The notes below the pieces were generated by a model, which was not told the origin of the DNA, made no database searches, and saw nothing but the letters and a program-made list of their open reading frames with translations. From the NCBI GenBank assembly GCA_963676565.1, contig OY781089.1, positions 1,024,001-1,088,000 of the forward strand: 64,000 nt of DNA. Reading direction: 5' to 3'. The first letter of the stretch is position 1. Each line of letters begins with the position of its first letter. Of this stretch, positions 5,605 through 14,636 are shown piece by piece. Origin of the DNA: Halarcobacter sp. GTDB taxonomy: Bacteria; Campylobacterota; Campylobacteria; Campylobacterales; Arcobacteraceae. The translations under genes were made by a program, and so were the position numbers.

Positions 5605-5677
5605 ATCTTATATTAGTTTTATTAATAAATGATTAATAATCCAAGTATATAATTCTCGTATATATTTGGAGGTTTCT

Positions 5678-6376
5678 ATGATTGAAGCAAAAAACTTAAA
5701 AAAAGTCTACAAAGTAGGTGAATTAGATCTTACTGTAATTAATGATTTATCTATATCTATAAAAGAGGGTGAATTTATATCTTTAATTGGTCCAAGTGGA
5801 AGTGGAAAATCTACTGTACTTAATATGCTTGGTTGTTTAGATACTCCAACTTCAGGAAATATAACTATAAATAATCAAGATATTACAAATTTAAATAAAA
5901 CGCAGCTTGCAAATTTTAGAGGTGAGCATATAGGTTTTATCTTTCAAAGTTTTAATCTTATTCCAGTTTTAACAGTTTATGAAAATATAGAGTATCCTCT
6001 TATAATGATTCAAAATTTAGCTGAAAATGAAAGAAAAATGAGAATAGAAAAACTTCTCAAAGAAGTTGGAATGTTTGAACAAAAGGATAAAACACCTGAT
6101 AAAATATCAGGGGGTCAAATGCAAAGAGTTGCCATAGCTAGAGCATTAGTTACTAATCCTAAAATCGTTTTTGCAGATGAGCCAACTGCAAATTTAGATA
6201 GTAAAACTGCACATATGATTATTGATTTAATGAAAAAGATTCAAAAAGAGCATAATACTACATTTATATTTGCAACCCATGATGAAAAAATTGTTGAAAA
6301 TGTGGATAGGTTAATAACTTTAATTGATGGTAATATTGTTGAAGATATTTATACTAAAAGTGGAGTGTCAAAATGA
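5678..6376 (+). CDS. ABC transporter ATP-binding protein (LolD/MacB-like)
   Basis: Walker A GPSGSGKST, IGFIFQSFNL, ISGGQMQR, ADEPTANLD; GGAGG SD before ATG at 5678. Confidence 0.93.
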   Translation: MIEAKNLKKVYKVGELDLTVINDLSISIKEGEFISLIGPSGSGKSTVLNMLGCLDTPTSGNITINNQDITNLNKTQLANFRGEHIGFIFQSFNLIPVLTVYENIEYPLIMIQNLAENERKMRIEKLLKEVGMFEQKDKTPDKISGGQMQRVAIARALVTNPKIVFADEPTANLDSKTAHMIIDLMKKIQKEHNTTFIFATHDEKIVENVDRLITLIDGNIVEDIYTKSGVSK

Positions 6377-7605
6377 ATAATATACTAAAAATTTCATATA
6401 GAAATTTAAAAAGAAACCATAGACGAACATTGTTGACATCAAGTTTAATTACACTAGGTGTAATCTTTGTATTAGTATATATAGCACTTTCTGGAAGTTT
6501 TAAAGCTTATATGGTTAGTCAGATTACTGATTCTTCAATGGGACATATACAAATACACAAAAAAGGATTTGTTGCTAGTGTTGAAAATCTTCCTTTAGAT
6601 AAGAATTTAAATGAAAAAGCTTTAAATTTTATTGAGAAATATTTAAATGAAAGTAAATATGTTGAAAGTTATTCATACAGAATAAAATTTGGTGCAACTT
6701 TTTCAAATTTTGAAAGTACAACAAATATAAGATTAAATGCAATAGATCCTAAAATGGAGTTTGCTACACTTCCTGCATTAAAAGATAGATTAGTTGATTT
6801 TAAAGGTTTACAAAAAGGTGAGATAATAGTTCCCGACCTTATTGCAAAAGGGATGAAAGTAAAAAATGGTGATCCAATTGTTCTTGTTGCAAATAATAAA
6901 AAAGGTAGTGTTAACGGTATTAATCTAAAAGTATCAGGATTGGTTGAAAGAATTAGTGGTCCTGGAGGAAGAGATGGTTATATTCATCTAGATGATGCCA
7001 AAAAAATATTAAGAATTGATGGTGTTGAGGTCAGTGAAATTTTAGTTAGATTAAAAGATAACAATAAATTAGAAGAGGCAGTAAAAGAGTTGAATCCAAT
7101 ACTTGAAAAATTAAATCAAAGTGGAAAACCTGCTTTTGAAATTCATACTTGGCAACAGTTAAGTCCATTTTATAACATTATAAAGATGCTTGATATTATG
7201 AATATTGCCATACAAATTATTCTAATTTCTATTGTACTAATCTCTATTTTAAATGTGATGATTATGAGTGTATATGAGAGAATTAAAGAGATCGGAACTA
7301 TTTCAGCTATGGGAACACCTCCAAAAACAATAGTAAAACTTTTTTTAACAGAAGGTTTATTACTTGGAATATTAGGGGCAGTTCTTGGTGGTATAGTTTC
7401 ATTTTTAATAGTTCAAGGTCTTGATATGGCACAAATCACTTATAGTTTTGGTAGAGAAAGTGATTTAATACTTGAACCTATATTAAAGTTTAGTGATATA
7501 GTTGTAGTTGGAATGATTGTTATATTTATCTCATTAATAGCTTCAATTAGTCCAGCTATAAAAGCTTCAAAATTAGACCCAGTAGAAGCTTTAAGAACAA
7601 ATTAG
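6373..7605 (+). CDS. ABC permease, LolC/E-FtsX family
   Basis: N-terminal TM, large periplasmic loop, ERIKEIGTISAMG and PAIKASKLDPVEALR motifs. Confidence 0.9.
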   Translation: MNNILKISYRNLKRNHRRTLLTSSLITLGVIFVLVYIALSGSFKAYMVSQITDSSMGHIQIHKKGFVASVENLPLDKNLNEKALNFIEKYLNESKYVESYSYRIKFGATFSNFESTTNIRLNAIDPKMEFATLPALKDRLVDFKGLQKGEIIVPDLIAKGMKVKNGDPIVLVANNKKGSVNGINLKVSGLVERISGPGGRDGYIHLDDAKKILRIDGVEVSEILVRLKDNNKLEEAVKELNPILEKLNQSGKPAFEIHTWQQLSPFYNIIKMLDIMNIAIQIILISIVLISILNVMIMSVYERIKEIGTISAMGTPPKTIVKLFLTEGLLLGILGAVLGGIVSFLIVQGLDMAQITYSFGRESDLILEPILKFSDIVVVGMIVIFISLIASISPAIKASKLDPVEALRTN

Positions 7606-7613
7606 GAGTATTT

Positions 7614-8327
7614 ATGAAAAATCTATTATTTATATGTTTATTTTTAGGTTCAATGTTTGCGCAAAATATACTTGAACAAGTTGATGAAAAAATGGCTCCA
7701 GGAAGCAGTGAAAGTTATAAAAAATTAGTTAATATTGAACCAGATGGAACCAAAAAAGAGTTTTTACTTTATCAAGCTAGAAAAGGTAGTAACAAAATGG
7801 TATCTGCTTTTCTAAAACCAGAATCAGAAAAAGGAAGAACAACATTAAGAGTTGATGATAATATGTGGCTTTATTTACCTGATGTTGGTAGAGCAATTAG
7901 AATCACTTCAATGCAAAGTGTGATTGGTGGGGTTTTTAATAACTCAGATATCATGAGACTTGATTTTGCAACAGAGTATGATATTGTATCTCAAAAAGAT
8001 AATAATGATGAAATTCTAGTTGAAACAAAAGCAAAAACAGATACAGTTGCTTATGATAAATTATTAATGAAAATTGACAAAAAAACACTTACTCCAAAAG
8101 AGATTGAGTGTTTTGCTTCAACAGGGATGTTAATAAAAACAATCTATTATAAAGATATAAAAGATTTTGGAAATGGAATAATTAGACCAGCAGTAATGGA
8201 GACAAAAAGTCCACTTTATAAAGGATATACTTCAATTATGGTTTATGGAAAGATTGAACCAAAAGAGTTTAGTGATGAAGCTTTTACTTTGGATAATCTT
8301 TCAAAAGTAGAAAATTTAAGAAGATAA
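7614..8327 (+). CDS. Outer-membrane lipoprotein-sorting (LolA-like) periplasmic protein
   Basis: Signal peptide; FLKPESEKGRTTL..DDNMWLYLPDVGRAIRI...FNNSDI pattern recalled for the LolA_like family. Confidence 0.8.
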   Translation: MKNLLFICLFLGSMFAQNILEQVDEKMAPGSSESYKKLVNIEPDGTKKEFLLYQARKGSNKMVSAFLKPESEKGRTTLRVDDNMWLYLPDVGRAIRITSMQSVIGGVFNNSDIMRLDFATEYDIVSQKDNNDEILVETKAKTDTVAYDKLLMKIDKKTLTPKEIECFASTGMLIKTIYYKDIKDFGNGIIRPAVMETKSPLYKGYTSIMVYGKIEPKEFSDEAFTLDNLSKVENLRR

Positions 8328-8331
8328 AAGG

Positions 8332-9420
8332 ATGAAGAAAAGCTATTGTCTTCTTAGTCTTATTGTTTCTTTTAGTTTTGCAAATGATTATGAATTTAGT
8401 TTTGATGAACTTGAAACAATGGAGACAAAATCTTATGAATATAGTGGATATATACAAGGTGAATATAAATATCAATCACTAGATGAAGGTTCTCAAAATA
8501 GTTATTTAGGAGAACTTTTTTTTAACTATAAATATTTTGTTGAAGATTATTCTTTTTATATTGATTTATTAGGAAATTATGAAAATATAAATCATAAAGA
8601 AGATTTTGAAGCTTTAATTAATCAAGGCTTTCTTAACTATAAATATAATGAAAATCATCAAATATATATAGGTAAGAAAACTCCAAAATGGGGTAAAGGC
8701 TACTATGTAAATCCACTTGCTTTTATTGATAGAAAAAAAGATCCCAATGACCCTGAAGGAAGCAGGGAGGGGTTTAGTCAAATAAATTATCAATACAATA
8801 AGGTTTTTAATAGTACTTTAAATAATATTTCTTTTGACATGGTGTATCTTAAAACAACTAAAGATGTGAATGATTATTTTTATAATGGCGAAGATTCAGA
8901 TATTTTGGCCTTAAAAACATATTTTCTTTATAATGATATTGACATTGATTTAGTCTATTTATATAGTAGTAAAGATGAAGATAAATTTGGTTTTGATTTT
9001 TCAACAAACCTTCAATCAAATTTTGAAATACATGGAGAGTATGGAAGATTTGATAATGGTTATTATTCATATCTTTTAGGATTAAAATATTTAACAGAAA
9101 ATGATTTAACAATTCTTAGTGAATTTTATTATCAAAATGAAACTCAAAGTAATAATACAGCTTTTTGGGATAAAAGATATTTTATAAATTCATTTACCCA
9201 AAAAGAGCCACTAGATATTTTATATACTAGTATTTACTATAAAAATATTTTAAATATTGATGATAACTCTCATCAGAATAGAGCTGGATTTATATATACA
9301 GGTATTAAAAATCTTGATATTGATTTTTCTTTTACAAAAAATATTGGAAATAAAATAAGTGAATATGGGAAAAAACCTGTAAATGAAAATTATTGGCTTA
9401 GTTTAAAATATAGTTTTTAA
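8332..9420 (+). CDS. Putative outer-membrane beta-barrel protein, unknown function
   Basis: Signal peptide, Tyr/Phe-rich alternating strands, IGKKTPKWGKG, C-terminal WLSLKYSF barrel-assembly signature. Confidence 0.7.
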   Translation: MKKSYCLLSLIVSFSFANDYEFSFDELETMETKSYEYSGYIQGEYKYQSLDEGSQNSYLGELFFNYKYFVEDYSFYIDLLGNYENINHKEDFEALINQGFLNYKYNENHQIYIGKKTPKWGKGYYVNPLAFIDRKKDPNDPEGSREGFSQINYQYNKVFNSTLNNISFDMVYLKTTKDVNDYFYNGEDSDILALKTYFLYNDIDIDLVYLYSSKDEDKFGFDFSTNLQSNFEIHGEYGRFDNGYYSYLLGLKYLTENDLTILSEFYYQNETQSNNTAFWDKRYFINSFTQKEPLDILYTSIYYKNILNIDDNSHQNRAGFIYTGIKNLDIDFSFTKNIGNKISEYGKKPVNENYWLSLKYSF

Positions 9421-9550
9421 ATAAAAAAGCCTTGGAAAGAGAGAGTTTTCCAAGGCTATATTAAAATCAATAGGGGGTATATTTTTATTTTCTTTTTATC
9501 ACCTCCTTGTTTTTGGGATGTGTCTTAAGAAAATCTTTTAATCTTTTAGA
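9421..9550 (-). ncRNA. Candidate 3'-UTR-derived small RNA downstream of fumarase
   Basis: AAGGAGGTGAT (9508-9498) with no start codon at normal spacing, a CCCCC tract and a C/U-rich terminator loop; inference only. Confidence 0.35.
9423..9457 (-). terminator. Intrinsic terminator of the frd-fum transcript (possibly bidirectional)
   Basis: 11-bp stem AGCCTTGGAAA/TTTCCAAGGCT; loop ACUCUCUC and U-tail on the minus strand. Confidence 0.85.
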
Positions 9551-11056
9551 TTAGATTTGTCTCCACTTTTGTGGACCTGTTGTATGAATAGAATTACCTT
9601 CTGTATCAACGGCAACAGTAACAGGCATATCTTTTACTTCAAATTCGTAAATAGCTTCCATTCCCATCTCTTCAAATGCTAGCACTTTTGCATCTTTAAT
9701 AGATTGAGAAATTAAATAAGCTGCTCCACCAGTTGCAATAAGGTAAGTTGATTCATATTCTTTGATTAAATCAATAGTTGGTTGCTTTCTTTCAGCTTTA
9801 CCAATCATACCCATGATTCCAATCTCCATCATATCTTTTGTAAACTTATCCATTCTAGTTGATGTAGTTGGTCCTGCAGGTCCTACTTTTTCATCTCTAA
9901 CTGGATCAACTGGTCCAACATAGTAGATAAATCTATCTTTTAAGTCAACACCATTTGGAAGTGGTTTACCTGCATTTTTATACTCAACAATTTTTTTATG
10001 AGCTGCATCTCTTGCAGTTAAAATTTTTCCTGATAATAGTAAAGTATCTCCTGATTTAAACTCTTTTAATTTCTCTTTTGTTAAATCTTCAATATTTACT
10101 TTTTTAACACTATCCATTGGTAATTCTAAATCTGGCCAAAGGTCTAAATCTGGTTTTTCAAATTTTGCTGGTCCATTTCCATCAAGTTCAAAATGGATAT
10201 GTCTAGTAGCTGCACAGTTTGGAATCATAGCAACAGGAAGTGATGCTGCATGACATGGATAATCTAAAATTTTAACATCTAGAACTGTTGTTAATCCACC
10301 AAGTCCTTGTGCTCCAATTCCCATTTTGTTAATATCTTCGAAAAGTCTCAATCTTAACTCTTCTAAAGCGTTTTGAGGACCTCTTTCTTTTAGTTCATGA
10401 ATATCAACATGACCCATTAAAGCCTCTTTAGCTAATAGCATTGATTTTTCTGGATTACCACCAATACCAATACCTAAGATTCCTGGAGGACACCATCCTG
10501 CTCCCATACCTTCAATGTTTGACATAACCCAATCATATACGCTGTCAGATGGAGTTAATACTGTAAATTTAGATTTATTTTCACTCCCTCCACCTTTAGC
10601 TGCAATTGTAATGTCAATTTTGTCGCTTTGGGCATCTACACTAAAGTGAATAACTGCTGGTGTATTATTTTTAGTATTTGTTCTAGCTCCAGCTGGGTCT
10701 GCAACAACAGAGTATCTTAAAGTATTATCTGGGTCTGTATAACCTTTTGCTACACCTTCATTTAATACATCTTCAATTGGTCTTGAAATATCTAGATTTG
10801 CTTTTAAACCAACTTTTACAAAAAGATTTATACTTCCTGTATCTTGACAAATTGGTCTATGTCCTAGTGCACACATTTTAGAGTTAATTAAAATTTGTCC
10901 AATAGCATTTTTTGCTGCTTCTGATTCTTCTCTTTCATAAGCATCTACCATCCCTTTTACGAAATCTTCGGGATGGTAGTATGAAATATATTGACATGCG
11001 TCAGCAATACTTTGGATTAAATCCTGTTCGGTAATTACTTTTGTTTCTTCAGCCAT
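9551..11056 (-). CDS. Fumarate hydratase class I (Fe-S, fused alpha/beta)
   Basis: CQDTG, KGGGSEN, WCPP, TARDAAH and GPTTSTRM motifs. Confidence 0.95.
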   Translation of the reverse strand: MAEETKVITEQDLIQSIADACQYISYYHPEDFVKGMVDAYEREESEAAKNAIGQILINSKMCALGHRPICQDTGSINLFVKVGLKANLDISRPIEDVLNEGVAKGYTDPDNTLRYSVVADPAGARTNTKNNTPAVIHFSVDAQSDKIDITIAAKGGGSENKSKFTVLTPSDSVYDWVMSNIEGMGAGWCPPGILGIGIGGNPEKSMLLAKEALMGHVDIHELKERGPQNALEELRLRLFEDINKMGIGAQGLGGLTTVLDVKILDYPCHAASLPVAMIPNCAATRHIHFELDGNGPAKFEKPDLDLWPDLELPMDSVKKVNIEDLTKEKLKEFKSGDTLLLSGKILTARDAAHKKIVEYKNAGKPLPNGVDLKDRFIYYVGPVDPVRDEKVGPAGPTTSTRMDKFTKDMMEIGIMGMIGKAERKQPTIDLIKEYESTYLIATGGAAYLISQSIKDAKVLAFEEMGMEAIYEFEVKDMPVTVAVDTEGNSIHTTGPQKWRQI

Positions 11057-11057
11057 A

Positions 11058-11780
11058 TTATGCTCCTTTAACAGTTGCTAACTTTCTTCTCATATAAGCA
11101 ATTTTGTTTTGTAATGGTAAGTGTTTAGGGCAAGTATCTTCACATCCAAGTAAAGTCATACAACCAAAGATACCATTATCATCACCAACTAACTCATAAT
11201 AATCGTCAGCTGTTCTTTCATCATGTGGGTCACATTCAAATCTTGCAATTCTATTAAGACCTACTGCCCCAACAAAATCTTCTTTTATAAGTTTTGTACC
11301 ACAACCAGCTACACAACATCCACACTCAATACATCTATCAAGTTCAAATACTTCATCTGCAACTTCAGGTTCAATTGGTTCTTCTAATTGTGAAATATCA
11401 ACTTCATGAGAAGTGTGAATCCAAGATTCAACTCTTTTTGACATCGCATCCATCCAAACACCAGTGTTTACTGAAAGGTCTTTGATTAGTTTAAATGTTG
11501 GTAGAGGTAATAACATGATTTCCTCTGGTAAATCTTTTGTTAAAGTTCTACAAGCTAATTTTGGTCTTCCATTAATCATCATTGCACAAGAACCACAAAT
11601 ACCAGCTCTACAAACGAAGTCGAATGAAAGACCAGCATCCATTGATTCTCTAATTTGAGTAAGAGCCAGATAGATAGTCATACTATCTGTCTCTGTAATT
11701 TTATAATCTTGAAAATATGGTTTTAAATCAGTTCCTTGAGGATTATATCTAAGAACTTTGATTGTCAATTCTCTAGCCAT
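11058..11780 (-). CDS. frdB: Fumarate reductase iron-sulfur subunit
   Basis: [17 protein letters not shown] and [12 protein letters not shown] cluster motifs. Confidence 0.96.
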
Positions 11781-13762
11781 TATTTTACTCCTAATCTTTG
11801 ATTTTTTCTTTTATATTCTGGTTGTAGTGGGAATGGCATTAGAGCATCTTGAATCTCATATCTATCTTTACCCTCAGCAGTTAATTTATCTGTTAACTCA
11901 TCAACCTCTTTTTGTCTAATTGCACTTAAATCATTTTCTATAATCATACCCTTAGCACCATAACCTCTAAATCCTGGAGGAATTTCCATAGTCATAATAT
12001 CTAGATCTTCATACTCAACTGTTGGCATAGTATCACCTTCTTTCCATGAAGTAAGTGTTCTTTTTAGCCAATTTGCATCATCTCTTTTTGGATAATCTTC
12101 TCTTGTGTGAGCCCCTCTAGATTCTGTTCTATCTAAAGCTCCTTTTGCTACACAAAGTGCTACTTTAAGCATCATTGGTACTCTATATGCTTCTTCTAAT
12201 TCAGGATTTGCACTTAATTGTTTATCTTTAATTCCAATATTTTTAGAAGCGATTAATAACTCTTCAAGTTCAGTAACAGCTTTTTGTAATCCTACACCAT
12301 CTCTAAAGATACCAACATACTCTTGCATTAATTTTTTCATTCTATTTTTGATTCTAAACACATCTTCTGTTCCATTTCTTGAAGCAAGCTCTTTCATATA
12401 ACTTTCTTTTTCATGAACAAACTTTTCAATTGTTTCAGTTTTAATATCAATTTGTGTTTCTAAACAATAATCTGCAAAATAGTTCCCAACAATCATACCT
12501 GCAACAACAGTTTCAGATACAGAGTTTCCTCCAAGTCTATTAAATCCATGCATATCCCAGCAAGCAGCTTCACCAGCAGAGAATAATCCAGCTAAAGTTG
12601 GAGATTCACCAGTTGGTTTTGTTCTAATACCACCCATAGAGTAGTGTTGCATTGGTAATACAGGAGCCCATCCTTTTGCACCTTCATCAGCTGGGTCAAT
12701 ACCTGCAAAGTATTCACAAATCTCTTGAACATCTCTTAGGTTTCTTTCAATATGTTCTCTACCTAAGATAGAAATATCTAACCATAAGTGTTTACCATAT
12801 GGAGAATCAACACCTTTACCTTTTCTAATATGCTCAATCATTCTTCTTGAAACAACATCTCTTGATGCTAAGTCTTTTTTCTCTGGCTCATAATCAGGCA
12901 TAAATCTGTGTCCATCTACATCTCTTAAAACACCACCATCACCTCTACAACCTTCTGTTAATAAAATACCAGATGGGAAAAGTGGAGTTGGGTGAAATTG
13001 AACTGCTTCCATGTTTCCAAGTTTTGCTACACCAGTTTCTAATGCGATAGCTGTACCAATACCTTCACAAATAACTGCATTTGTAGTGATTTCATAAACT
13101 CTACCATATCCACCAGTAGCAATAAGAGTACCTTTCGCAACGTAAGCCATAATATCACCAGTGATTAAATCTCTTACAATAGCACCATAACATCTATTAT
13201 TTTGGTGAATAAGTCCAATAGCTTCTTTTCTATCTTCAATATTTACATCTCTTTTTAATGCTTCATTTGCAACTGCAAAAAGCATTGTGTGACCTGTTGC
13301 ATCAGCTGTATAACAAGTTCTCCATTTTTTAGTACCACCGAAGTCCCTTGAATTAATAAGACCATGTTTGTCATCATCTTCATGGATAGTTGTTCTTTTT
13401 GTATTGATTACTGCTTCATGGTCACCTTTTTTAATTCTAGTCCAAGGCACACCCCAAGCTGCTAATTCTCTAATTGCTTTTGGCGCAACTGTTACGAACA
13501 TTCTTGCAACTTCTTGGTCACATCCCCAGTCAGAACCTTTTACTGTATCTGTAAAGTGAACGTCTTCATTATCACCTTCAGACATTTTTGCATTACCTAA
13601 ACTTGCTTGCATCCCACCTTGAGCTGCAGCACTGTGAGATCTTTTTACTGGACAAAGGCTTAAAACCGTTGTACTAAGTCCCTTTTGAGCACAGGCAACT
13701 CCGGCTCTTAAACCAGCTAGACCTCCACCTATAACTAATGAATCACAATATTTAATTATCAT
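11780..13762 (-). CDS. frdA: Fumarate reductase flavoprotein subunit (Wolinella type)
   Basis: GGGLAG, covalent-[36 protein letters not shown]. Confidence 0.97.
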
Positions 13763-13792: not shown

Positions 13793-14560
13793 TTATTTTT
13801 CTAAAACTTTTGAATGAGAAGTTGGTACATATTTTTCACCAACATTGTCACTATGCTCAATACCAATTTTGATATATGCTAATAATGTAATAACACCTAA
13901 AGTCATGAAGAAATAGCTAAGTAATTTTTTTACATTTAAAAGTTTTGCTCTAGTTTCTTTTGGATTAGCTCCATCAAACCATCCCCATTTCATTGCAGCT
14001 CTATAAAGCCCAACTGAACCATGGATTTCAACACAAATTAATAAAACCATATATAAAAGCCACATGTGCTCACTTACAACTCTATCTGCACTTGCATATG
14101 GTCCGATATTTTGTGGTTGTGTAAACATGATATATAAGTGAATAGTTGCAGCAAACATCATTATTAAACCTGAAATCCATTGGAACATCCACATTGATGT
14201 ATCTTTATGATTCATTAATTTTGCATGTTCTCTAACTTTGATATATGTTTTATAAGATGTAGGGAATTTTCTAACACCTAAAATTGCATGAACAATAAAT
14301 ATTGCAGAAATTATTGCAACAAAAATAGAAACTATAAAAGGAATTCCTCCATCAAAGATGAAACTTAATTCAAACGCTTTTGTAACAGCGTGCATTACAT
14401 CTTTACCTAATAATATTGTTGATACGAACATCATATGTCCCATCATAAAAAGTGCTAAAATCACACCAGAAGCTGTCAGCCATTTATCTAATTTAGCAGG
14501 TGTTCTACTTTTTTTACCTTCAGTAGTAACATCTGTATAGGCTTCAATAACTCTATCCAT
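13793..14560 (-). CDS. frdC: Fumarate reductase diheme cytochrome b subunit
   Basis: Five TM segments with four His ligands; VEIHGSVGLYR motif retains the E-pathway-type Glu. Confidence 0.95.
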   Translation of the reverse strand: MDRVIEAYTDVTTEGKKSRTPAKLDKWLTASGVILALFMMGHMMFVSTILLGKDVMHAVTKAFELSFIFDGGIPFIVSIFVAIISAIFIVHAILGVRKFPTSYKTYIKVREHAKLMNHKDTSMWMFQWISGLIMMFAATIHLYIMFTQPQNIGPYASADRVVSEHMWLLYMVLLICVEIHGSVGLYRAAMKWGWFDGANPKETRAKLLNVKKLLSYFFMTLGVITLLAYIKIGIEHSDNVGEKYVPTSHSKVLEK

Positions 14561-14613
14561 TTTGTCTCCTTTGAGAAATTTTATGTTTTGATTGTGGAAG
14601 TTTACATAGACAA

Positions 14614-14636
14614 AATGACTTTAAAGTGATGTCATT
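14614..14636 (-). promoter_or_regulatory. Putative regulator box upstream of frdC
   Basis: Minus strand ATCAC-tttaaa-GTCAT (14630-14615), overlapped by the inverted repeat AATGAC-N11-GTCATT. Confidence 0.45.

Follow-up and report, generated by a model that had tools for sequence, protein, structure and literature searches.

In the STAB-SD mechanism, a Shine-Dalgarno (SD) sequence that does not initiate translation binds the 30S ribosomal subunit and blocks 5'-to-3' exonucleolysis by RNase J1 (PMC4113751). The small RNA (sRNA) RsaG of Staphylococcus aureus comes from the 3' untranslated region (UTR) of uhpT, where trimming by RNases J1/J2 stops at a hairpin (PMC9438474, PMC11187230). In Campylobacter jejuni, which has no RNase E and uses RNase III, RNase Y, PNPase and possibly RNase J, the 3'-UTR-derived sRNA CJnc230 (FlmE) is co-transcribed with the upstream gene flgE (PMC11187230), and in enteric bacteria SdhX (RybD) is a 3'-end sRNA of sdhCDAB-sucABCD (PMC6393394). 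Finally, 3'-UTR sequences of the icaR and hbs mRNAs interact with SD- or anti-SD-type motifs and set the fate of the mRNA (PMC3868564, PMC5737220). Here, we describe the 3' UTR of a fumarate-respiration operon, frdC-frdA-frdB-fum, located in a 64,000-nucleotide (nt) stretch of a Halarcobacter sp. genome (contig OY781089.1), the whole of which is called the window below. An earlier note on this DNA had proposed that an SD sequence without a start codon in this UTR holds a 30S subunit, which stops mRNA decay and releases a stable RNA acting through C-rich seeds. This interpretation is partly supported. The UTR contains a real, lineage-restricted and previously uncatalogued 3'-terminal module of the frd operon, which is neither a product of chance nor a relic, and which points to an undescribed small RNA or RNA-stabilizing element.

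The host genome (G000; other G numbers designate genomes of relatives, and L numbers individual loci) is a single contig of 3.34 Mb with 28.4% G+C. The stop codon of the fumarase, TAA, occupies positions 9553-9551 of the minus strand. This gene and the parts of the module that follow it on the same strand are:

9551-11056, minus strand: class-I fumarate hydratase of 501 amino acids, last gene of frdC-frdA-frdB-fum (open reading frame, ORF; Pfam Fumerase and Fumerase_C)
9421-9550, minus strand: 3' UTR and convergent spacer of 130 nt, containing the entire module
9498-9508, minus strand: orphan SD box AAGGAGGTGAT, an 11-nt perfect complement of the 16S rRNA 3' tail, with an AGGAG core invariant in 13 of 13 homologues
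9478-9497, minus strand: A-rich spacer AAAAAGAAAATAAAAATATA, without a canonical start codon
9473-9477, minus strand: C5 run (C6 in G010, C8 in G014), aligning with short pyrimidine tracts (GCTTCTT etc.) of other clades
9458-9470, minus strand: TTGATTTTAATAT, local version of an AT-rich block, AAATTTAAT or AAATTAAATCA (alignments, by eye)
9428-9457, minus strand: terminator hairpin AGCCTTGGAAA/ACTCTCTC/TTTCCAAGGCT, with an 11-bp stem and the 8-nt loop ACTCTCTC (9446-9439)
9422-9427, minus strand: T6 tract, completing the frd-fum intrinsic terminator

The stop codon, the 11-mer (9508-9498), the CCCCC run, the hairpin and the T tract all lie where the earlier note had placed them, and the SD box belongs, as it had claimed, to a unit of the fumarase sense strand that ends in the operon terminator. 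The sequence of the 16S tail was taken from the genome's own rDNA. AAGGAGGTGAT lies 42 nt from the fumarase stop and 44 nt before the terminator. The whole genome contains five copies of this 11-mer (0.81 expected on both strands under a mononucleotide model), four of them in rDNA, antisense of the 16S 3' end, and the fifth at 9508-9498; outside rDNA it is unique. It is also the longest intergenic match to the complement of the 16S tail outside rDNA, the longest match serving a gene being 10 nt. The predicted duplex of AAGGAGGTGAT with the 16S tail has a free energy of -18.5 kcal/mol, which is reached by 0 of 2601 ORFs of at least 150 amino acids, taking for each ORF the best of all in-frame starts within the first 40 codons (minimum -18.0, median -5.8 kcal/mol). 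The box does outdo any gene SD in this comparison, as had been claimed. No ATG, GTG or TTG occurs 0-15 nt past its GGAGG core: a GTG at 9502-9500 overlaps the SD, and the next TTG (9470-9468) is 31 nt off and opens a frame of four codons. Starts are likewise missing from the 0-15 nt after the core in all 13 homologues, which confirms the claim that the box has no start codon at a usable spacing. A lone 11-mer could be accidental, but the retention of the box in orthologous UTRs, described below, shows that it is not due to chance. The length of the UTR, said in the earlier note to be large for so compact a genome, is less telling: in a crude ORF map of the whole genome the median convergent spacer is indeed only 16 nt, but 16% of 355 such spacers measure at least 130 nt. 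Two further strong intergenic SD boxes, AAGGAGGTG and AAAGGAGGTG, are found outside the window, at G000:C1:2712747 (plus strand) and G000:C1:1482127 (minus strand); the former has no start codon nearby, and the latter stands upstream of a 14-codon ORF resembling a leader peptide, MMKTRIILFWHGFN.

We define the module as an AGGAG(G) box with no ATG, GTG or TTG within 15 nt, followed by an A-rich spacer with a short pyrimidine tract and by a terminator 44-67 nt downstream. It ends the orthologous frd operon in 13 genomes from two Arcobacteraceae genera, either after an frd-linked fumarase (G000, G010, G014, G006, G016, G023, G110, and G106) or directly after frdB, with no fumarase between (G009, G013, G012, G007, and G003). 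The module is linked to the 3' end of the frd operon and not to the fumarase. The conservation after fum that the earlier note had looked to in relatives is found insofar as the box is kept in 13 genomes, but it is tied to the operon end, with five copies directly after frdB. BLAST searches with the 139-nt UTR against 184 genomes of the family gave full-length matches in G010 and G014 only, the remainder being short A/T-rich stretches, and distant homologues were recovered by synteny and a covariance model. From the stop codon to the end of the hairpin, G010 and G014 are 97.6% and 95.3% identical to G000, whereas in the same pairs the last 300 nt of the fumarase are about 90% and the neighbouring plus-strand gene 80-88% identical. 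In G006, G016, and G023, AGGAGGTG stands 18-22 nt past the fumarase stop and is followed by an A-rich run, a GCTTCTT tract and a hairpin opening with AGCCTTAG or AGCTTTAG.

Fumarase genes away from frd gave a different picture. In a set of 80 loci from other species, 76 fumarase loci were not seen beside frdB, and in none of them does GGAGG occur in the 110 nt after the stop (one of the 76 lacks downstream sequence, and several are cut upstream, so that their linkage to frd is unjudged). Among the four frd-linked loci of this set, one (L102) carries the module, in a sequence identical to the G110 element. A first covariance model, built from seven copies and run on 151 genomes of the family, matched 17 genomes, of which 11 are true (G000, G010, G014, G006, G016, G023, G012, G009, G013, G110, and G106). 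The matches in G116, G113, G026, G130, G140, and G124 were discarded as false positives, being 3' ends of other genes with a terminator and no box (by eye). A second model, built from 13 copies, revealed no module in 140 genomes from 25 other families of the order; the lone extra match, in G031, is the 3' end of another gene, again with no box by eye, and was rejected as well. We also surveyed all 25 genomes of the genus by anchoring on frdB. The FrdB type of the window (at least 86% identity) occurs in 14 of them, 11 of which carry the box at the operon end; the survey brought in G007 and G003, and G011 was left out of the box count, as its contig ends there. One genome, G012, has two tandem frd operons (L062 and L158, G012:C1:375600-383800): the first, frdCAB-fumarase, ends in a plain terminator and the second, frdCAB, in an SD module with AAAGGAG.

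The gene beyond the module is not the same throughout. The G000 clade has a convergent uncharacterized ORF there (in G000, 362 amino acids and no Pfam family). G006 and G110 have an OmpR-type response regulator, also convergent, and G009 and G023 an aspartase-type lyase that runs co-directionally; the upstream motif or start of this last gene is also present in G013, G012, and G007. Across these three different neighbours the orientation of the module to the frd operon is constant. Such constancy weighs on the proposal that the functional strand is the plus strand, from which read-through of the convergent gene, or a promoter of its own, would produce an RNA that mimics the 16S tail through AUCACCUCCUU. 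A perfect anti-SD is indeed present on that strand, along with a -10-like TATATT at about 9457-9462 and a weak terminator-like hairpin at 9562-9575. However, the orientation stays fixed while the neighbour changes, the G.U pairs of the terminator hairpin (G010; G009 by eye) fit the sense strand only, and the 9562-9575 hairpin falls in conserved coding sequence. The read-through version, which the earlier note had offered as its alternative, is unlikely given the co-directional next gene in G023 and G009 and a convergent neighbour that differs between clades, and we regard a plus-strand function as a whole as highly improbable.

Within the module, conservation is concentrated on the box. We grouped the homologues by eye into eight clades and compared one representative of each. 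Outside the terminator region, no other stretch of five or more alignment columns than AGGAG shows identity in at least seven of the eight representatives; AGGAG is identical in all eight, and in all 13 homologues, while the identity of the whole element between clades is 58-65%. A short, seed-like conserved block in drifting sequence is what 3'-UTR sRNAs display. The match slides along the 16S tail from one homologue to another (AAGGAGGTGAT, AAAGGAGGTGA, AGGAGGTGA, AAAGGAGGT, AGGAGGTG), which fits selection for pairing to the tail rather than for one fixed word. The distance from stop codon to SD varies from 1 to 109 nt, whereas that from SD to hairpin is confined to 44-67 nt (counted by hand), which makes the SD and the terminator one unit of roughly 90-110 nt. 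These features are difficult to reconcile with a relic, that is, the ribosome-binding site of a lost downstream gene left to neutral drift. It is true that in G009 and G013 the box abuts the frdB stop, as the SD of a coupled gene would, and that G022 has lost it while G012 and G003 keep a weakened form. On the other hand, a start codon or a common frame is found in 0 of 14 homologous UTRs (the 13 with a box and that of G022), AGGAG is intact in all 13 where the flanks have fallen to 58-65% identity, and the box stays with the terminator whether fumarase or frdB precedes it. A relic is accordingly very unlikely in our view. The seeds put forward in the earlier note did not withstand the comparison: the C tract has lengths of 5, 6, and 8 in the three closest genomes and is replaced elsewhere by GCTTCTT, CCTTACT, TATTCCT or nothing comparable, and the CUCUCUC loop is found in the window's clade only, other loops being GAGAGAT, ATTTTT or TAAATCTTA. 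The homopolymeric C tract, with its three lengths, may be slippage-prone.

Coding potential gives no better account of the box. Frames differ among close relatives, the possible peptides are unrelated between clades, and the lengths of the C run (5/6/8) imply that no frame is conserved across it. A small ORF, with a canonical or a near-cognate start, was rejected for want of a usable start spacing and of a frame kept among relatives. One variant deserves separate mention: a tiny ORF opening at a near-cognate AUA or AUU after the box (Lys-rich, IKK...), whose translation or peptide would be what matters. ATA or ATT does occur 4-7 nt past the core in 5 of the 13 homologues (G006, G110, G106, G023, and G009), but in the window's clade ATA is just 2 nt from the core and its frame stops after four codons. 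Moreover, peptide lengths would span 4 to more than 23 residues with no relationship across clades, G110 and G106 lose their common frame ahead of the hairpin, and a 1-nt indel separates G006 from G016 after the box (by eye); such an ORF is, to our mind, a highly improbable explanation.

The downstream half of the module behaves as an intrinsic terminator, a G+C hairpin with a T tract in which stem pairing is kept. A consensus scan of 9200-9800 gave two terminator-like sites against 0.2 expected and called the hairpin a terminator (11 pairs, T6). In an alignment of seven sequences, two of eight stem pairs show compensatory change, one shows a G.U that fits the sense strand only, and 100% of the cells in these eight pairs are paired. 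G010, G014, and G023 have a weak T tract. The AT-rich block AAATTTAAT / AAATTAAATCA stands 10-20 nt ahead of the hairpin in most homologues (by eye). In the window's clade, a further stem is predicted around the SD:

9487-9534, minus strand: predicted clade-specific stem enclosing the SD, formed by AUUUUCUU (9534-9527) and AAGAAAAU (9494-9487) in the minimum free energy (MFE) and centroid folds

Its 5' arm, AUUUUCUU, sits in an insertion of about 30 nt that the alignment confines to G000, G010, and G014.

Such folds lead to the main rival explanation, a structured 3' UTR acting in cis without ribosomes: the purine box would be the 5' strand of a weak hairpin formed with the pyrimidine tract or with a CUCC-type loop and, together with the terminator, would set 3'-end stability or termination efficiency. 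The C5 run could pair weakly with the SD; in seven aligned homologues, 88% of the cells in the AGGAGG:pyrimidine helix are pairable, and in most homologues the partner of the box in the MFE fold is GCUUCUU, CCAUCUU or ACCUU. In addition, CUCC or CUCCUU is present in the terminator loops of G009, G013, G007, G003, and G022. These anti-SD-like loops belong to the copies that follow frdB (L164, L165, L171, L172, and L181) and are not in the fumarase-linked ones; their possible partners are the box, in cis, and the SDs of other mRNAs. Yet the helix displays no compensatory change, its purine side being fixed while the partner drifts, and four of the seven sequences have an A.C mismatch in mid-helix, whereas a selected helix should allow variation on both sides. 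The invariant AGGAG combined with a match that slides along the 16S tail points instead to a conserved partner in trans. We therefore consider the cis-acting structure unlikely, while giving it more weight than the other rivals.

Of the RNA-decay enzymes, RNase J (645 bits) and RNase Y (578 bits) are both encoded in the genome, with scores over the cut-off, in agreement with the earlier note as regards RNase J, and no match to the RNase E/G, Hfq or CsrA families was found in G000. With RNases J and Y present and RNase E/G not found, a roadblock to a 5'-to-3' exonuclease is a reasonable route to a stable 3' fragment; STAB-SD operates, and RsaG is formed, against a decay machinery of this kind. 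Campylobacter and Helicobacter encode CsrA, beside which the missing match in G000 is notable. A CsrA site (the box includes AAGGA) as the principal explanation, and a role of the A-rich spacer as an (ARN)n site for Hfq, were both rejected, there being no CsrA and no Hfq match in the genome. Searches of Rfam with E-values up to 10 gave 12 sub-threshold matches and none at the gathering score; CyaR_RyeE (29.9 versus 47 bits) and L10_leader (29.3 versus 44 bits) were dismissed on that ground.

In all 13 genomes the module occupies the interval between the last stop codon and the shared intrinsic terminator, as does a 3'-UTR sRNA. This layout is also compatible with an independent or 3'-end sRNA whose SD-like box would be a seed or sponge for C/U-rich, anti-SD-like RNAs instead of a ribosome site, and which would couple fumarate respiration to other regulons in the manner of SdhX. 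A conserved block of 5-8 nt, of single-stranded type and beside a terminator, is the usual layout of sRNAs, whose seeds comprise 8-10 conserved bases according to PMC9438474, and SdhX offers the precedent of a TCA-cycle operon with an sRNA derived from its 3' end (PMC6393394). Several clades have a T/A-rich block (TTTTAATCTA, ATAAATCTA, TCAAATCTA) 6-13 nt upstream of the box, which by eye could be a -10 element. However, a promoter scan of the minus strand over 9200-9800 revealed no sigma-70-like site, the upstream block at that distance is missing in the window's clade, and there is no Hfq match in the genome. Furthermore, no partner RNA is known, and among perfect complements in the cell the 16S tail far exceeds all others in abundance. 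A seed or sponge of this kind appears to us distinctly unlikely, more so than the cis-acting structure.

The reading that we tentatively place first, although we would not give it even odds, is that in Halarcobacter-like Arcobacteraceae the frdCAB(+/- fum) operon ends in a conserved module of non-coding RNA, and that a 30S subunit docked on its orphan SD protects a 3' fragment of roughly 90-110 nt, following the logic of STAB-SD. The box would be retained through pairing with the 16S rRNA 3' tail, and a 30S subunit would dock on it without initiating. In a cell that degrades mRNA through RNase Y and RNase J, the latter a 5'-to-3' exonuclease, a subunit so placed would constitute a roadblock, and the last 90-110 nt of the transcript would persist as a stable 3'-UTR-derived small RNA. 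All the steps beyond the conserved sequence module, namely 30S docking, the block to RNase J, the accumulation of a discrete RNA and any later action, are inferred. The wider proposition, that in bacteria with RNases J and Y but without RNase E and Hfq a non-initiating 30S subunit on an orphan super-SD carves a stable sRNA from the frd operon, as a new route of 3'-UTR sRNA biogenesis, is doubtful at this stage; in that case, the RNA held on the anti-SD could tie up or report free 30S subunits under high frd expression.

Several observations weigh against 30S docking as the role of the box. In G012 and G003 it is reduced to the weaker AAAGGAG, and G022 keeps the hairpin with AAAGAC in place of the box. 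Plain terminators follow four frd-linked fumarases (L099, L104, L110, and L062, the first G012 copy) and probably a fifth, in G024 (L068), where the link to frd is unproven across contig ends. The weakened or lost boxes and the plain terminators mean that the function is dispensable. The covariance models were derived from copies with an SD, and the wider searches are biased accordingly; only the survey of the genus anchored on frdB escapes this bias. Predicted folds leave the SD partly free, with mean unpaired probabilities of 0.09-0.48 among the 13 SD-bearing homologues. The element is also less conserved than the adjacent coding sequence in several pairs, at 83% versus 93% identity in G006/G016, 91% versus 96% in G110/G106, and 78% versus 87% in G009/G013; it is more conserved only in G000 versus G010 and G014, and we abandoned greater conservation of the UTR than of coding DNA as a general claim, as it failed in the other genome pairs. 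At the RNA level, the sequencing runs on offer were small-share metatranscriptomes and oligo-dT runs under a common species label. Three raw-read RNA runs gave 0 reads on the UTR, which is no test either way; metatranscriptome contigs matched only 9561-10200, within the coding part of the fumarase, and 141 of 243 did so at 90-95% identity, and hence come from relatives. Finally, a roadblock in a 3' UTR protects no coding sequence, so that any benefit must come from the fragment itself and is purely conjectural.

The remaining genes of the operon and the neighbour beyond the module are:

13793-14560, minus strand: frdC (ORF; the Pfam families over the frdCAB-fum genes are Fer2_3, FAD_binding_2, Succ_DH_flav_C, Fumerase and Fumerase_C)
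11780-13762, minus strand: frdA (ORF and Pfam)
11058-11780, minus strand: frdB (ORF and Pfam)
8332-9420, plus strand: convergent ORF of 362 amino acids without Pfam family, a neighbour outside the module

The convergent ORF closes an operon-like row on the plus strand (5666-9420) that encodes an ABC ATPase, a MacB/FtsX-type permease, a LolA-like protein and the 362-residue protein without Pfam family. It is the "barrel gene" of the earlier note, a name retained here only as a label. A second class-I fumarase, whose protein is 93% identical to the frd-linked copy, lies outside the window (G000:C1:2070800-2072300). It is followed by a plain terminator and then by a class-II fumarase-like gene (start MDYRIEKDTMGE), which is the sole arrangement in most relatives. 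Upstream of frdC, on the minus strand (14611-14632), ACATCACTTTAAAGTCATTTTG resembles ACATCACTTTTAGTTCATTTTAGAGGATTACAAT, a motif conserved ahead of the aspartase-type gene next to the frd module in G009, G013, G012, G022, G007, and G023; a similar sequence is also present after the fumarase in L099 and L104. Such a motif may serve a C4-dicarboxylate regulon as a common operator or promoter.

In the open-access literature, we found no account of an SD-based roadblock in the biogenesis of 3'-UTR sRNAs, and the term Shine-Dalgarno is absent from the text of the review PMC9438474. If true, 30S docking on a conserved start-less SD, one terminator-length ahead of the operon end, would provide a second, ribosome-based roadblock solution beside the hairpin case trimmed by RNase J, and the STAB-SD principle, so far one of Gram-positive 5' leaders, would apply to a 3' UTR in the Campylobacterota as well. 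For these marine bacteria, it would add a non-coding output to the operon of fumarate respiration, comparable to SdhX in enterics. Direct tests are feasible, the element being short and sharply defined and several of the genomes that carry it being complete single contigs. Were the box a structural strand or a dispensable leftover, the module would be an ordinary lineage-specific UTR motif.

Among the systems described so far, SdhX resembles the present locus in genomic logic only, the 3' end of an operon of succinate/fumarate metabolism serving as a non-coding output; it shares no sequence similarity with the module and needs RNase E and Hfq, neither of which was found in G000. The icaR 3' UTR reportedly carries an anti-SD that masks the SD of its own mRNA, whereas here it is the 3' UTR that bears the SD; inspected by eye, the frdC leader contains no obvious complement to this UTR. 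CJnc230 belongs to the same phylum and has the same 3'-UTR position, but it derives from the flgE operon, a sequence relation to the module is not expected, and no orphan SD is mentioned for it in the relevant part of PMC11187230. The STAB-SD of Bacillus thuringiensis cry3A is similar in having an SD-like box complementary to the 16S 3' end, here an 11-nt perfect match, in a host with RNase J. It differs in lying in a 5' UTR, near the 5' end, where it protects a coding mRNA, whereas the box described here is past the last stop codon, where it could protect a non-coding tail only, in a Gram-negative member of the Campylobacterota. With RsaG, the likeness would be that of a 3'-UTR sRNA left by 5'-to-3' decay of the parent mRNA halted before the terminator, as is proposed here; the RsaG roadblock is a stable hairpin, whereas the candidate roadblock at the end of the frd operon is a 30S subunit docked on an orphan SD.

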